Assembly: GCF_053078305.1 (NCBI RefSeq) | Contig: NZ_CP166879.1 | DNA length: 64,000 nt | Direction: 5' to 3' (one strand) | Shown here: one piece after another, positions 39,144 to 44,686 of the stretch | Position numbering within the stretch: the stretch's first letter is position 1 | Layout: each line of letters opens with the position of its first letter | The notes under the pieces: generated by a model | The model's input: only the letters and a program-made list of their open reading frames with translations | Told to the model about the DNA's origin: nothing | The model's database searches: none | Program-made: the position numbers and the translations under genes

Positions 39144-40721
39144 ATGACGGAAAACATTCATAAGCATCGCATCCTCATTCTGGACTTCGGTTCTCAGTAC
39201 ACTCAACTGGTTGCGCGCCGCGTGCGTGAGCTGGGTGTTTACTGCGAACTGTGGGCGTGGGATGTGACAGAAGCACAAATTCGTGACTTCAATCCAAGCG
39301 GCATTATTCTTTCCGGCGGCCCGGAAAGTACTACTGAAGAAAACAGTCCGCGTGCGCCGCAGTATGTCTTTGAAGCAGGCGTACCGGTATTCGGCGTTTG
39401 CTATGGCATGCAGACCATGGCAATGCAGTTGGGCGGTCACGTTGAAGCCTCTAACGAACGTGAATTTGGCTACGCGCAGGTTGAAGTCGTAAACGACAGC
39501 GCACTGGTTCGCGGTATCGAAGATGCGCTGACCGCAGACGGTAAACCGCTGCTCGATGTCTGGATGAGCCACGGCGATAAAGTTACCGCTATCCCGTCCG
39601 ACTTCGTCACCGTAGCCAGCACCGAAAGCTGCCCGTTTGCCATTATGGCTAACGAAGAAAAACGCTTCTATGGCGTACAGTTCCACCCGGAAGTGACTCA
39701 CACCCGCCAGGGTATGCGCATGCTGGAGCGTTTTGTGCGTGATATCTGCCAGTGTGAAGCCCTGTGGACGCCAGCGAAAATTATCGACGATGCTGTAGCT
39801 CGCATCCGCGAGCAGGTAGGCGACGATAAAGTCATCCTCGGCCTCTCTGGTGGTGTGGATTCCTCCGTAACCGCAATGCTGCTGCACCGCGCTATCGGTA
39901 AAAACCTGACTTGCGTATTCGTCGACAACGGCCTGCTGCGTCTCAACGAAGCAGAGCAGGTTCTGGATATGTTTGGCGATCACTTTGGTCTTAACATTGT
40001 TCACGTACCGGCAGAAGATCGCTTCCTGTCAGCGCTGGCTGGCGAAAACGATCCGGAAGCAAAACGTAAAATCATCGGTCGCGTTTTCGTTGAAGTATTC
40101 GATGAAGAAGCGCTGAAACTGGAAGACGTGAAGTGGCTGGCACAGGGCACCATCTACCCTGACGTTATCGAATCTGCGGCGTCTGCAACCGGTAAAGCAC
40201 ACGTCATCAAATCTCACCACAACGTGGGCGGCCTGCCGAAAGAGATGAAGATGGGCCTGGTTGAACCGCTGAAAGAGCTGTTCAAAGACGAAGTGCGTAA
40301 GATTGGTCTGGAGCTGGGTCTACCGTACGACATGCTGTACCGTCACCCGTTCCCGGGACCAGGCCTTGGCGTTCGTGTTCTGGGTGAAGTGAAGAAAGAG
40401 TACTGTGACCTGCTGCGCCGTGCTGACGCCATCTTCATTGAAGAACTGCGTAAAGCGGATCTGTACGACAAAGTCAGCCAGGCGTTCACCGTCTTCCTGC
40501 CAGTACGTTCCGTTGGCGTAATGGGCGATGGTCGTAAGTATGACTGGGTTGTCTCTCTGCGTGCTGTCGAAACCATCGACTTTATGACCGCACACTGGGC
40601 GCATCTGCCGTACGATTTCCTCGGTCGCGTTTCCAACCGCATTATCAATGAAGTGAACGGTATTTCCCGCGTGGTGTATGACATCAGCGGCAAGCCGCCA
40701 GCTACCATTGAGTGGGAGTGA
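39144..40721 (+). CDS. guaA: GMP synthase (glutamine-hydrolysing) GuaA
   Basis: 525-aa ORF, GATase and ATP-PPase (SGGVDSSV) motifs. Confidence 0.95.
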
Positions 40722-40760
40722 GGCTATTATTTAAACTATTGTTTTATTTGATTTAGTGAG

Positions 40761-40800
40761 TGCCATTGATGATATTGACTGCATTATCAATGGCATTTTT
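40761..40800 (+). terminator. guaA terminator
   Basis: imperfect stem TGCCATTGATGAT / ATTATCAATGGCA followed by ATTTTT. Confidence 0.5.
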
Positions 40801-41105
40801 CATGGTATAAGGCCGACGCTGAATCGAAGATATAGCAAATACCATGTGACTGTATCAGCAAATGCCATGGTATCGACAACCGGGGGCATTGCAGCGCTGT
40901 GCTGATGCCATCGATGCCCGCTTTTAGTCAGAACACTCTCTCGACCCAAGCCTCCAGATCCTTAAATATGCGCCAGAGGAGCACCTCGTGATCGAAATTA
41001 TGAACAAGACAGCCGCCGCTCGGAATCGAAGTCTCCATATGGGTGAATAAGGTTTGCGGAAAACACGCTGAGAAAATAGAAAAGCGTCAATGAAGGGACA
41101 TAGCA

Positions 41106-42386
41106 ATGGCGATTAACGGAGTGGACGGTGTTAGCGCAGTCACCGTGGATGAACTACTCAAGCAAGGCCTTCGGATACCGAACTATCAACGCCCATACAG
41201 TTGGGAAGTATCGACCGCTCTACAACTGGTGGATGATCTCAGCGAAGCTCTTCGAGATACCGAAAGAAAAGATATTCCCTATGTTTTGGGTGCAATCATT
41301 CTTCACGATGATGGTGAGTATCTCAATGTAGTCGACGGACAGCAACGTCTGCTGACTTTGCGAATGATTCTTGCGGCCTTAGATCCGATAAATCACCAAA
41401 TTTCGGTGTCTGGTAACAGAGAAACCTCTGTCTCCCTGGTTTGGATAGAGCTTCAAAGGCGCCTGTCGCAGTTGGAAGATAAAAAAGAATTTTTGGATTT
41501 TATCTGTCACAAATGTCAGTTGGTGCGTATTGTGACGGACGATATTGATGAGGCATTCCGTGTCTTTGATTCCCAGAACTATCGCGGCAAACCGCTTGCC
41601 CCTCATGACTTGCTCAAAGCACACCACCTGCGCGAAATGCACGATGAGTCCGCTGCTATGAAAGTGGCTGTCGTTGAGGCTTGGGAAGCCGTAAATGATG
41701 AGGATCTGGACAGGCTTTTTTCTACTTTTTTATACCGGATATCCAAGTGGTCACGAGGAGAAAGCTCGCTCGAATTTGCTATTCGGGACATCGGTATGTT
41801 CAAGGGAATTTCATCACGATCCCACAGATCATTTTCGCCAAATCTGCGATATCACCTTGCAGCACAAGCCGCTATGCCACTTCTAAGTGCATGGGCGGTG
41901 TCCTCGACACATGATGCTCGAAATGCCGGGCGCAGCCGCTTTCAGCTTGATGCCCCGATAATCGCTGGGCGCTCATTTTTCGAGATGGTGGCATTCATGC
42001 TTGACGAATTGAAGATACTGGAAAAAGAGGTTATCGACAAAGGTTTCAAAAACTTTGGCCCATCTCAAAGTCGCTACCGCTACGTGTACGAATTGTTCAT
42101 TGCCGCTCTGCTTTGCTATACAAACAAGTTTGGCGATGAAGATGTGGATGAAGTGCGAAATAGGTTATTCGCATGGGCATATGCCTTGCGGGTCGAGTTA
42201 CTTCGTGTGCAATTTGTATCTGCTGACAACCGAGCTCGAGGTAAAAACGATGCAAATAAATCGCCTTTTGTTTTGCTACGCAACGCGATGACTGGAAGTG
42301 TTGTCCGCAAACTTCCAATAGCAAGTCAGCCATACAACGATAACCACGAAAAGGAACTCATTGCTTTTATCAAGGGGCTGCAATGA
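41106..42386 (+). CDS. DUF262-like (ParB/Srx-fold, GmrS-like) protein without nuclease domain; first gene of accessory two-gene cassette
   Basis: 426 aa; N-terminal IPNYQRPYSW and DGQQRL motifs at ~aa 25-80, later FDSQNYRGKPL motif; SD AAGGGA upstream; stop overlaps next start. Confidence 0.8.
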   Translation: MAINGVDGVSAVTVDELLKQGLRIPNYQRPYSWEVSTALQLVDDLSEALRDTERKDIPYVLGAIILHDDGEYLNVVDGQQRLLTLRMILAALDPINHQISVSGNRETSVSLVWIELQRRLSQLEDKKEFLDFICHKCQLVRIVTDDIDEAFRVFDSQNYRGKPLAPHDLLKAHHLREMHDESAAMKVAVVEAWEAVNDEDLDRLFSTFLYRISKWSRGESSLEFAIRDIGMFKGISSRSHRSFSPNLRYHLAAQAAMPLLSAWAVSSTHDARNAGRSRFQLDAPIIAGRSFFEMVAFMLDELKILEKEVIDKGFKNFGPSQSRYRYVYELFIAALLCYTNKFGDEDVDEVRNRLFAWAYALRVELLRVQFVSADNRARGKNDANKSPFVLLRNAMTGSVVRKLPIASQPYNDNHEKELIAFIKGLQ

Positions 42387-44335
42387 GCAAGAAGGAGTTG
42401 AAACCCGAACTGCTAACAGTAGGCAAGCTATTCACGGACAATTATCTGATTCCTATTTATCAACGGAACTATGCTTGGCGGGCCGAACAGATTGAGCAAC
42501 TTATCAGCGATATTCAAGACTCGGTTGTTGGGGGCCAGGACGACTATTTTCTTGGAAACCTTGTTGTAATCAAGCGGGGTAGAGAGGACGAGTTCGAGGT
42601 CATAGATGGACAACAACGACTTACAACCCTCTATCTGCTTCTGACCTTCCTGGAGCAAGACGGTGAGGGTGGGAAGCCGTCGATTGGCCATGCAGGCCAC
42701 TTGCAATATGAGTCGCGTGCACGGGCAACGGAAGCCCTGCGGCGAGTAGCACAGGAGGCGGCTAAGGGGCACGTCCGACCGCAGGGCTCCACGAGTAATG
42801 CAGATGCTGGCATCCATGAAGGCTACAGCATCATCAATCAGTTCTTCAAACAAAATGAAACCCTTAATTGCTCACGCGAAAAATTCTCCGATTTCTTGCT
42901 AACGAAGGTTACTGTCGTCCGTGCCTCGCTGCCACCCAATACAGATCTCAATCGCTACTTCGAGATCATGAACACTCGTGGGCAGCAACTCAAGCAGGTT
43001 GATATTGTTAAGGCTCGCCTGATGAGCAAGCTGCCCAATCAATATGAACGCGAATGCTTCGCCTGGGTTTGGGATGCCTGTGCTGAGATGGATTCTTATG
43101 TCCAGATGTCTCTGACCCGTGGTGACACCAGTTTGCGAAACAAAGTATTTGGCGATGAATGGTCCTGGCTGGAGGTGACCAGCTTCGCGTCGTTAATGGA
43201 AAGTCGTCCGCAATCCGGCATCAATTCTTCAAGGCAATCCTCCGAAGGGGTATCGTTGTCCTTGGATGAGGCGTTGTCAAAATACGCTAAAGAGATCGAG
43301 TCAAATTCCACTGAAGACGAGGGCAACGAGCGGTTTCGTTCGACTATTGAGTTTCCGGCCTTTCTGCTACACGTTCTAAGAATTATGAAAGGCGATGAGG
43401 TCGAAGACGAAGGCCAGCTTGACGACAAACGCCTCATCAAGTCATTTGACGACGCTGTAAATAATGTACCCGATGCTAAAGCCGATTGGGTGCGTAACTT
43501 TACATTCATGCTCCTCAAGTGCCGCAACCTCTTCGATGGCTTCATTTTGAAGCGTCAATTCACGGCGAACATCGGTGACGATGGCGATTGGTCTCTCCAG
43601 CGATTGAAGAAAGGCGGCGCGGACAAGAAGCCAACCCCGACGTATATCCATGTTTTCTCGGCCAGCAATGGAAACTTAGAGGAGGACGGCGGTGCTGACC
43701 CACATACCCGAGATGTATTGCTGCTTCAGTCCATGCTTCGGATAACCTACACTTCTCCGCGAACGATGCACTGGATTACCAAAGTTCTTCGCTGGCTATC
43801 CGTCAAAGCCCCTCAAGACGCGAAACATGCGGATCTTGCCGATTTGTTGAAGGGGTATGCCCGCAGCAAGGTCAAAGAGACATTCCCCTTTGAGGAAGAT
43901 CAGCAACCACAAGGGTTTGGTATCAGCCGCATCGTCTTTTCGTATCTCGACTATCTTCTGTTGAGCGATTCCTCAAAACGAGATTTCAAATTTCAGTTCA
44001 GAACTTCCATTGAGCACTTTTATCCACAGCATCCGGACAAAGAACAGTCGGGCGCGGTTGTTTCAGGTTCTAGCCTTAACCTGCTTGGCAACCTTGCGCT
44101 CGTAAGCGTCAGCGCGAACTCAAAATTCAGCAATAGCCTTCCCAGAGCGAAGGCCGAAAACTTCAAGGATACGATTGAACTTCAAAGTCCCAAGCTCAAG
44201 AGAATGGCGGAAATCACTCGAAATACAAGCTGGGACGATCAGCAGATAACAGCTCATCATGAAGAGATGGTGACATTGCTTCGTGATGATGTAAGTCTGG
44301 TGGAGGCAAGCGGAAGATCCTACCCGGGGCGTTGA
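42383..44335 (+). CDS. GmrSD/SspE-like protein: N-terminal DUF262-like domain fused to C-terminal DUF1524-like His-Me finger nuclease domain (putative modification-dependent or defence endonuclease)
   Basis: 650 aa; IPIYQRNYAW and DGQQRLTTL motifs; FEIMNTRGQQL; C-terminal SIEHFYPQHP ... GNLALVSVSANSKFSN. Confidence 0.8.
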   Translation: MSKKELKPELLTVGKLFTDNYLIPIYQRNYAWRAEQIEQLISDIQDSVVGGQDDYFLGNLVVIKRGREDEFEVIDGQQRLTTLYLLLTFLEQDGEGGKPSIGHAGHLQYESRARATEALRRVAQEAAKGHVRPQGSTSNADAGIHEGYSIINQFFKQNETLNCSREKFSDFLLTKVTVVRASLPPNTDLNRYFEIMNTRGQQLKQVDIVKARLMSKLPNQYERECFAWVWDACAEMDSYVQMSLTRGDTSLRNKVFGDEWSWLEVTSFASLMESRPQSGINSSRQSSEGVSLSLDEALSKYAKEIESNSTEDEGNERFRSTIEFPAFLLHVLRIMKGDEVEDEGQLDDKRLIKSFDDAVNNVPDAKADWVRNFTFMLLKCRNLFDGFILKRQFTANIGDDGDWSLQRLKKGGADKKPTPTYIHVFSASNGNLEEDGGADPHTRDVLLLQSMLRITYTSPRTMHWITKVLRWLSVKAPQDAKHADLADLLKGYARSKVKETFPFEEDQQPQGFGISRIVFSYLDYLLLSDSSKRDFKFQFRTSIEHFYPQHPDKEQSGAVVSGSSLNLLGNLALVSVSANSKFSNSLPRAKAENFKDTIELQSPKLKRMAEITRNTSWDDQQITAHHEEMVTLLRDDVSLVEASGRSYPGR

Positions 44336-44632
44336 CTTCTTTGAATAACCGCTTTTGGACGAATGTCCCTTGTGGAGTGCAAGTTGTCAGTTTAAAAGTG
44401 TTTTGCGTCGGGCGACACGATCAGTACAGCTCCCAGGTTTTTTTACCATGGTATTTTGTGTGGTATCGACATGCAAAGATAATGCTATTTTGTTGATTTT
44501 ATAGTGTTTTAAGGCGGCATTGATCATCGAGTGGGAATAAACCCTGTACATATTGCTGAAGTTTTCTTTTCGGATAAAACTTCAGCAGATTTTCACAGCA
44601 AACCCCTCTTATCTCTGGAGGTTTTTTTTACG

Positions 44633-44667
44633 CAAATTAAAAACCCATAACTCTCACGAATCATGGG
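44633..44667 (-). terminator. yfgI terminator
   Basis: minus-strand hairpin CCCATGATTCGTGAGAGTTATGGG followed by T-rich run. Confidence 0.4.
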
Positions 44668-44686
44668 CTTTGTGGTAGAAAGACGA

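Follow-up and report, generated by a model that had tools for sequence, protein, structure and literature searches.

The window analysed here is a stretch of 64,000 nucleotides of contig NZ_CP166879.1 (RefSeq assembly GCF_053078305.1). Between guaA and yfgI it carries two adjacent co-directional genes, ORF1 and ORF2, whose coordinates and ATGA overlap agree exactly with those given in an earlier note on this DNA. The guaA-yfgI spacer is 3,965 bp here versus 92 bp in MG1655, which bears out the remark that the segment is missing from K-12, and homology to MG1655 stops at the guaA stop codon and restarts 3 nt before the yfgI stop. The features of the locus are the following:

40710..40717, + strand: left GAGTGGGA core, attL-like, inside the last guaA codons
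40718..44528, + strand: inserted unit between the cores (core-to-core 3,819 bp)
40937..41105, + strand: upstream non-coding region, presumed native promoter and 5' UTR, conserved with the gene pair
41106..42386, + strand: ORF1, TgvA/GmrS1-like subunit, 426 aa (ORF list, Pfam)
41160-41630, + strand: ORF1 DUF262/GmrSD_N NTPase-type domain (Pfam)
41334..41348, + strand: ORF1 DGQQR motif, D77-R81, putative nucleotide binding/hydrolysis (invariant in 38 A-type proteins)
41661-42347, + strand: ORF1 helical DUF7834 domain (Pfam)
42383..42386, + strand: ATGA start/stop overlap that couples ORF1 and ORF2 (verified on the sequence)
42383..44335, + strand: ORF2, TgvB/GmrSD2-like subunit, 650 aa (ORF list, Pfam)
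42422-43024, + strand: ORF2 DUF262/GmrSD_N domain (Pfam)
42605..42619, + strand: ORF2 DGQQR motif, D75-R79 (invariant in the B-type alignment)
43943-44275, + strand: ORF2 DUF1524/GmrSD_C His-Me finger nuclease domain (Pfam)
44012..44134, + strand: ORF2 His-Me finger, E544-H545 at 44012-44017, then N570, N579 and N584
44511..44540, + strand: degenerate copy of the guaA 3' end (...KAALIIEWE and stop), right boundary of the unit (repeat and translation)
44529-44536, + strand: right GAGTGGGA core, attR-like, within the degenerate guaA 3'-end copy

Pfam profiles confirmed that both proteins contain DUF262, a ParB/Srx-like NTPase domain, and that only the second contains DUF1524. GmrSD_N (PF03235) was matched at residues 19-175 of ORF1 (E 1.3e-27) and 14-214 of ORF2 (E 2.2e-33), and GmrSD_C (PF07510) at residues 521-631 of ORF2 (E 1.1e-13), where a helical linker joins the two domains; no nuclease domain was found by Pfam in ORF1. 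The C-terminal half of ORF1 is DUF7834 (PF25202, residues 186-414, E 5.6e-55), which the earlier note had overlooked and which is common to ORF1 and TgvA. The motifs described in both proteins are intact (YQR 27-29, DGQQR 77-81 and FDSQN 154-158 in ORF1; YQR 26-28, DGQQR 75-79, FEIMN 193-197 and EH 544-545 in ORF2). QR, DGQQR and FxxxN are invariant across an alignment of 38 nuclease-less (A-type) sequences including TgvA and GmrS1, and E544, H545, N570, N579 and N584 of ORF2 are invariant in the alignment of nuclease-bearing (B-type) proteins, E544/H545 aligning with E582/H583 of ECOR17 GmrSD2. Judged by dN/dS (0.10-0.23), ORF1 and ORF2 are both under purifying selection. The best structural matches of the predicted ORF1 structure are SspE, DndI and BrxU.

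The non-coding region upstream of ORF1 is co-conserved with the ORFs at 87-90% identity in unrelated contexts (L011-L015). A consensus sigma-70 scan gave no + strand site and the unit showed no internal terminator; because of the former, the promoter role of this region is presumptive. Neither Rfam families (E up to 0.1) nor convincing small ORFs were found in the non-coding parts.

The cassette is present in 81 of 5,426 complete E. coli genomes (1.5%), i.e., it is accessory and not core. The segment was acquired horizontally. It was also found on 468 plasmids, of which 464 belong to Klebsiella and 394 are conjugative. The pair in the order A then B is kept in Bordetella avium, Pseudoduganella, metagenomic mobile elements, and other Enterobacterales. 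The A and B genes of the relatives examined overlap by up to 4 nt or lie up to 5 nt apart, and one of these relatives (metagenomic) adjoins hsdRMS. No phage records carrying the cassette were found, and no dnd/ssp modification genes adjoin it in any context examined. This distribution and the dN/dS values fit a defence gene.

Comparison with described systems placed both proteins in one family. ORF1 aligned nearly end to end with TgvA (E 1e-27) and with ECOR17 GmrS1 at 31% identity (E 5e-56), and ORF2 aligned with residues 1-399 of TgvB (29% identity over 420 columns, E 8e-37) and over its full length with ECOR17 GmrSD2 (33% identity over 674 columns, E 1e-87). The homology is subunit-specific: A-to-A and B-to-B comparisons gave E values of 1e-27 to 1e-87 over 377-674 columns, and crosswise A/B pairs aligned over about 70 residues (E about 1e-8 to 1e-10), mainly in the DUF262 core. 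The gene arrangement is also that of the doublet family, with adjacent co-directional genes, the nuclease-less A first and the nuclease-bearing B second. The cassette very probably encodes a modification-dependent (type IV) restriction enzyme that has two subunits and belongs to the TgvAB / GmrS1-GmrSD2 doublet family, although identity to the experimentally validated systems is only 25-33%. The earlier suggestion of a type IV-restriction-like defence system is supported. The cassette is, however, a known system and not a new one, because TgvAB of V. cholerae and GmrS1/GmrSD2 of ECOR17 were described and named in 2024-2025; it can no longer be called uncharacterised, and the split-plus-fused arrangement for which no name had been available is the architecture of the TgvAB / GmrS1-GmrSD2 doublet.

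Close relatives of the cassette already figure in the supplements of both papers. Among the TgvAB model matches in Table S5 of PMC11411939, Shimwellia and Klebsiella proteins are near-identical to the cassette proteins over the stretches compared. In Supplementary Data 6 of PMC12373910, near-identical proteins form clusters CLS_016 and CLS_017, among enterobacterial GmrS-like proteins. The E. coli Res13-Sevr-PER07-33 proteins WP_001625659 and WP_001625657 (98.6% and 99.8% amino acid identity to ORF1 and ORF2, respectively) and the plasmid alleles sit in CLS_017/CLS_016. According to that paper, each of its 15 groups was represented by one synthesised system in the tests, and CLS_016/CLS_017 is apparently one of these groups. 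No NCBIfam family was found for ORF1 or ORF2. PADLOC had been proposed earlier as a check; PADLOC-DB 2.0.0 (2023) returned only partial, mostly N-terminal matches to HEC-06, Orf5 and SspE, and it has no TgvAB model and therefore cannot name the cassette.

TgvAB of V. cholerae (VC1767/VC1766) is located on VPI-2 (PMC11411939, PMC11014532). It resembles the cassette in the A-then-B order with overlapping ORFs (8 bp between tgvA and tgvB; PMC11014532), in the domains (DUF262 and DUF7834 in A, as Pfam finds GmrSD_N and DUF7834 in TgvA; DUF262 and DUF1524 in B), in the QR, DGQQR, FxxxN and His-Me motifs, and in reciprocal homology over most of the length, but the cassette is only 25-29% identical to it. 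Furthermore, V. cholerae tgvAB is embedded in a type I RM operon, whereas the cassette stands alone between guaA and yfgI; this embedding, although it figures in the name, does not define the family, because stand-alone tgvAB is about 17 times commoner than the five-gene form with type I RM genes (PMC11411939). The closest experimentally validated relative is ECOR17 GmrS1/GmrSD2 (CLS_003/004), in which the EH nuclease residues align, although it belongs to a different cluster and its GmrS1 and GmrSD2 are longer by 57 and 30 residues, respectively. In both systems defence requires the two genes together, and either one by itself is inactive; the target is the glucosyl-hydroxymethylcytosine DNA of T-even phages, and T2 and T4 escape when glucosylation is lost (PMC11411939, PMC11014532, PMC12373910). 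Defence was lost in the DGQQR mutants G94A and R97A of TgvA and G81A and R84A of TgvB, and the His-Me finger mutants H571A and N602A of TgvB were inactive (PMC11411939), as was the E582A/H583A double mutant of ECOR17 GmrSD2 (PMC12373910). Restriction by ECOR17 is confined to glucosyl-hmC T4, and T4 Ip3 blocks it; overexpression of either protein alone gave no protection, and induction of both together was grossly toxic (PMC12373910). TgvAB cultures go on growing at MOI up to 5 (PMC11411939), which indicates direct defence.

Single-chain GmrSD (E. coli CT596, Eco94GmrSD), whose cleavage of glucosyl-hmC DNA is stimulated by NTP, shares DUF262, DUF1524 and the overall logic of ORF2, but one polypeptide suffices, whereas members of the doublet family also require a DUF262 partner that has no nuclease, and beyond DGQQR there is essentially no sequence similarity between the two kinds (PMC12373910). 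BrxU and HEC-05/HEC-06 (GmrSD-like, embedded in BREX or Hma) differ in being single proteins (homodimers), and their PADLOC matches lie mainly in the first ~90 residues. Membership among single-chain GmrSD, BrxU or HEC-06 was rejected, the partner gene being conserved and the best stretches to HEC-06 and Orf5 covering only about residues 1-100.

By analogy with the studied doublets, ORF1 and ORF2 most likely act as a hetero-oligomer in which neither protein would work alone (no hetero-oligomer structure of a doublet-family member was found in the PDB copy searched). Both DUF262 domains may take part in nucleotide binding or hydrolysis and sense how incoming DNA is modified, and would then license the sole nuclease domain, that of ORF2, to cut hypermodified phage DNA. 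The substrate is most probably T-even-like phage DNA that carries glucosyl-hydroxymethylcytosine, and the outcome would be direct protection, not abortive infection. Of the earlier idea that the nuclease-less paralog is a sensor or regulator of the nuclease, joint action with the nuclease stands. On the published data the A protein is better seen as an obligate co-subunit than as a mere regulator: DGQQR mutants of TgvA abolish defence, and in ECOR17 neither overexpressed protein protected by itself, while the two induced together were grossly toxic.

Glucosyl-hmC specificity of the cassette clade would be an extrapolation, because the identity to TgvAB and the ECOR17 doublet is so low and because substrates differ among GmrSD-family members (BrxU versus GmrSD). 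It is conceivable, though rather unlikely, that the family and the two-subunit mechanism are the same but that this clade reads a different DNA modification, e.g., non-glucosylated 5hmC, arabinosyl-hmC or another hypermodified base of Klebsiella/Enterobacterales phages, in which case standard T-even phages would not be restricted in the manner of TgvAB. The low identity and the variable substrate range inside the GmrSD family speak for it, as do the location of the clade mainly on Klebsiella plasmids and the report in PMC12373910 that activity against T-even phages was seen in only 5 of the additional enterobacterial systems synthesised (therefore some groups were inactive on the T-even panel). 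It is opposed by the fact that both studied doublets, although distant from each other, target glucosyl-hmC T-even phages.

Readings outside the family fare much worse. A phosphorothioate-sensing effector of the SspE/DndI type (DUF262-DUF1524), dependent on phosphorothioation of host DNA, is extremely improbable, even though PADLOC SspE profiles and the PDB entries of SspE and DndI match both ORFs and the two proteins are among the best structural matches of the ORF1 model: the sequence matches span only the N-terminal DUF262 core (about 70-100 residues), the ssp/dnd modification genes that such effectors need do not adjoin the cassette here or in the other contexts examined, and it is TgvAB and the ECOR17 doublet that the ORFs resemble over their full length. 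The core-only similarity and the lack of adjoining dnd/ssp genes led us to reject it. The tight coupling of the ORFs and the gross toxicity of the over-induced ECOR17 doublet might suggest that ORF1 holds a toxic ORF2 nuclease in check until infection, as in a toxin-antitoxin or abortive-infection pair. This is very unlikely and was rejected, because the ECOR17 toxicity is reported only for joint induction, single proteins giving no protection, because the NTPase-motif mutants of TgvA abolish defence and do not unleash it, and because of the growth of TgvAB cultures at high MOI. There is similarly little probability that the cassette has lost its function and is decaying as a passenger at the guaA attachment site, as might be supposed from a unit without an integrase and from two E. 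coli copies, one truncated by ISKpn26 and one interrupted by ISSen4. Of the 81 E. coli copies, 78 have both ORFs intact and full length, as do the E. coli and plasmid copies that were compared closely, a near-full-length DNA match occurs on 454 plasmids, and the intact ORFs, the low dN/dS and the invariance of all catalytic motifs decided against a relic. The two-subunit type IV restriction enzyme is the reading that we retain.

An observation that may be new concerns the insertion site: the cassette, 3.8 kb long and without an integrase, is inserted precisely at the GAGTGGGA attachment core in the guaA 3' end. The GC content of the inserted unit is 0.48, versus 0.54 in guaBA; in E. coli B27 the intact K-12 spacer restarts directly after the right core, and plasmid copies end at 7 of the 8 core bases. 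No integrase or transposase was found inside the unit and no integrase in the flanks examined (~6-9 kb per side). GIsul2-family integrases use the GAGTGGGA sequence at the 3' end of guaA as their core site, and the CR2-sul2 unit is an integrase-less att-flanked unit that is mobilised there by the GIsul2 integrase (PMC9376610). Like the cassette, it has GAGTGGGA cores at both ends, lies at the guaA 3' end, lacks an integrase, and can be found on plasmids too, where the cores are imperfect (PMC9376610), but its cargo is a resistance gene and that of the cassette is defence genes. No relatives of the cassette arms were found in other E. coli elements. The enterobacterial copies that are more distant (87-90% identity) lie at sites other than guaA and have no GAGTGGGA cores, and the att arms therefore belong to the guaA sub-lineage only. 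We tentatively suggest, as a doubtful but not negligible possibility, that the cassette is a minimal integrase-less site-specific mobile element that borrows a GIsul2-family integrase in trans, like CR2-sul2, perhaps together with the reading of a modification other than glucosyl-hmC by its clade. Such an element would shuttle between chromosomes of Enterobacterales, where it uses the guaA attB, and IncF conjugative plasmids of Klebsiella, where it uses secondary GAGTGGG(A) sites.

E. coli and hundreds of conjugative plasmids of Klebsiella carry such pairs under the annotation "DUF262 domain-containing protein"; they can now be annotated as TgvAB-type two-subunit type IV restriction, which is useful for predicting resistance to T-even-like therapeutic phages and when a host has to be picked for cloning modified DNA. 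How cassettes spread without their own recombinase is a minor question on which the att-site observation bears in a testable way and, if the suggestion of a borrowed integrase were true, the defence system would be hitch-hiking as an att cassette.

The cassette consists of two co-directional ORFs, lying exactly where the earlier note had placed them, and the junction between them is an ATGA start/stop overlap:

41106..42386, + strand, ORF1, A-type (TgvA/GmrS1-like) gene, 426 aa
42383..44335, + strand, ORF2, B-type (TgvB/GmrSD2-like) gene, 650 aa

The overlap and the motif positions quoted in that note were verified in the sequence. Pfam placed GmrSD_N (DUF262) at residues 19-175 of ORF1 (E 1.3e-27) and residues 14-214 of ORF2 (E 2.2e-33), and GmrSD_C (DUF1524) at residues 521-631 of ORF2 (E 1.1e-13), which bears out the claim that both proteins carry DUF262 and ORF2 alone DUF1524; the sole omission from that domain list was DUF7834 at residues 186-414 of ORF1 (E 5.6e-55). 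The AlphaFold2 model of ORF1 (pLDDT 85.7) shows an alpha/beta DUF262 domain and then an all-helical C-terminal half, and this predicted fold places ORF1 in the GmrSD family as a member that lacks the His-Me finger. In 38 A-type sequences including GmrS1, H414 of ORF1 is kept in at least 90% and E415 is invariant (nt 42345-42350); the two residues sit just ahead of the subunit's final helix, in a local fold other than a beta-beta-alpha finger. No heterocomplex of doublet subunits was found in the PDB copy searched.

The split-plus-fused arrangement, which the earlier note could not assign to any named system and regarded as uncharacterised, has already been published under two names, and its clade is catalogued. 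TgvAB of the Vibrio cholerae island VPI-2 was described in two 2024 papers: TgvA (VC1767) has DUF262 only, TgvB (VC1766) has DUF262 and DUF1524, the ORFs overlap, both genes are needed for defence, and activity is lost with DGQQR mutants of either protein as well as with TgvB H571A and N602A; in E. coli the system blocks T2, T4 and T6, the target being glucosylated 5-hydroxymethylcytosine (PMC11411939; PMC11014532). The "GmrS1/GmrSD2 doublet" of E. coli ECOR17 (2025) has a TgvAB-like architecture and the same two-gene requirement, is inactive as the nuclease mutant E582A/H583A, and restricts only glucosyl-hmC T4, with the injected T4 protein Ip3 as a specific inhibitor (PMC12373910). Both pairs were compared with the cassette, using the first 399 residues each of TgvA and TgvB (from supplementary tables) and full-length GmrS1 and GmrSD2 (rebuilt from supplementary alignments).

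Comparison of the cassette proteins with published relatives
ORF1 vs TgvA (first 399 residues): 25% identity, 377 columns, E 1e-27
ORF1 vs GmrS1: 31% identity, 424 columns, E 5e-56
ORF2 vs TgvB (1-399): 29% identity, 420 columns, E 8e-37
ORF2 vs GmrSD2: 33% identity, 674 columns (full length), E 1e-87
Crosswise pairs vs TgvA/TgvB: about 70 residues (DUF262 core), E about 1e-10

TgvA scores as GmrSD_N followed by DUF7834, the same two-domain architecture as ORF1. Invariant residues of the A-type alignment (38 sequences including TgvA and GmrS1) are Y27, Q28 and R29, D77-R81, and F154/Q157/N158/G161; those of the B-type alignment are DGQQR, E544-H545, N570, N579 and N584, of which E544-H545 of ORF2 align with the mutated E582-H583 of GmrSD2. 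Near-identical pairs from Shimwellia blattae (AFJ46164/5) and a Klebsiella plasmid (AIX87316/5) appear as VC1767/VC1766 matches in the table of the TgvAB authors (PMC11411939). The ECOR17 study counts three two-gene systems among the 20 commonest enterobacterial clusters, calls CLS_003/004 and CLS_018/019 doublets, and states that a representative of each group was synthesised and assayed (PMC12373910). The E. coli and plasmid alleles WP_001625659 and WP_004182042, and WP_001625657 and WP_000037308, belong to CLS_017 and CLS_016 of that study, and we infer that CLS_016/017 is the third doublet because the accession numbers of its members are consecutive. Judged by its sequence, the cassette thus belongs to a kind of type IV restriction system that already has a description and a name.

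Catalytic motifs are intact in both subunits, the two genes are translationally coupled, and both are under purifying selection (dN/dS 0.10-0.23 against the Klebsiella plasmid allele and a 90% relative). By analogy with the relatives, ORF1 and ORF2 would co-operate obligately, probably as a hetero-oligomer, in which both DUF262 domains may sense in a nucleotide-dependent manner and so license the lone nuclease of ORF2 for cleavage of phage DNA that is hypermodified, an action that would amount to direct defence. Specificity for glucosyl-hmC is extrapolated from the same relatives; with identities to them of only 25-33% and substrate variation known in the family, the cassette might recognise another modification, which we consider rather unlikely. 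Readings as a phosphorothioate effector, a toxin-antitoxin pair or a dead relic are disfavoured.

More than 2,200 homologs of ORF1 were found at E<1e-5, and all of the top 120 combine PF03235 with PF25202. In every context examined (Bordetella avium, Pseudoduganella, a metagenomic mobile element and further contigs with 87-89% identical ORF1 copies), a GmrSD_N+GmrSD_C gene directly follows the A-type gene, with a 4-nt overlap to a 5-nt gap. The pair of the metagenomic element adjoins hsdRMS and an AAA_15/21 ATPase gene. In this element (L005-L007, 1-10266), the TgvAB-type pair is 58% identical and lies directly 3' of hsdR-hsdM-hsdS, the AAA_15/AAA_21 ATPase gene and a 333-aa gene that has no annotation; transposase and integrase genes are also present. 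The whole is a compact defence island, reminiscent of V. cholerae tgvAB, which is embedded in type I genes. The cassette is accessory in E. coli, being present in 81 of 5,426 complete genomes (79 of the 81 chromosomal). PLSDB holds 468 plasmids with it (464 from Klebsiella, 394 conjugative; the single plasmid examined in detail is IncFIB/IncFII), and it was found in no phage record. Both window proteins are already known, as exact sequences, from E. coli, and at 90% they cluster with proteins of Kluyvera, Serratia and Proteus as well. On two Klebsiella-type IncFIB/IncFII conjugative plasmids (L016, L002), the cassette is flanked by sopAB partition genes with an IS1 copy, and by umuDC; an antirestriction gene and genes that we read as leading-region-like follow a few kb beyond, and restriction and anti-restriction are therefore encoded in one plasmid segment. 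Natural knock-outs occur in E. coli TUM2820, where ISKpn26 cuts the cassette about 60 nt into ORF1 and yfgI is lost too, and in E. coli MB15, where the IS3-family ISSen4 lies inside the matched region.

Homology of the window to K-12 ends at the guaA stop codon, and the guaA-yfgI spacer measures 3,965 bp versus 92 bp in MG1655, so the segment is indeed missing from K-12, as the earlier note stated. Its boundaries are as follows:

40710-40717, left core GAGTGGGA, guaA 3' end
40718-44528, inserted unit, between the two GAGTGGGA cores
44511-44540, degenerate copy of the guaA 3' end (...IEWE, then stop)
44529-44536, right core GAGTGGGA

The octamer has just two copies in the 64-kb window (40710, 44529), and these bracket the unit. 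In E. coli B27, which has a 95.6% allele, the complete K-12 spacer directly follows the right-hand GAGTGGGA, thus revealing a precise 3,817-bp insertion with core duplication there. The Klebsiella-type plasmid copies have the same cores as boundaries (left 8/8 bases, right 7/8). GIsul2-family integrases have GAGTGGGA at the 3' end of guaA as their core attachment site, and they are also able to mobilise CR2-sul2, an integrase-less att-flanked unit (PMC9376610). Site-specific insertion of the cassette at the GIsul2-type attB core in the guaA 3' end is well supported.

Just past the guaA stop and inside the unit, 40761-40800 holds a 13-bp inverted repeat (TGCCATTGATGAT / ATTATCAATGGCA) with a 9-nt loop and then TTTTT, apparently a substitute terminator that the element provides for guaA; the terminator that guaA has in K-12 now lies beyond the insertion. 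Past the right core, a divergent 150-bp spacer (44537-44686) stands in place of the one that K-12 has between guaA and yfgI. Within it, 44554-44587 form a perfect 12-bp hairpin and 44605-44629 resemble a terminator; only the six E. coli genomes that are at least 99% identical share this spacer.

A CCATGGTAT...GGTATCGACA motif stands in direct orientation in each of the two non-coding arms (40865-40878; 44446-44471). Its 10-mer is found twice in the arms, where 0.09 copies would be expected for the window as a whole; the motifs are possible arm-type sites for the binding of a recombinase or an excisionase. Arms without the cassette were not found elsewhere in E. coli. No integrase lies within the unit, and we hypothesise that it could still be mobilised in trans at present. 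The att-flanked state of the cassette is the one element of the finding that is possibly new.
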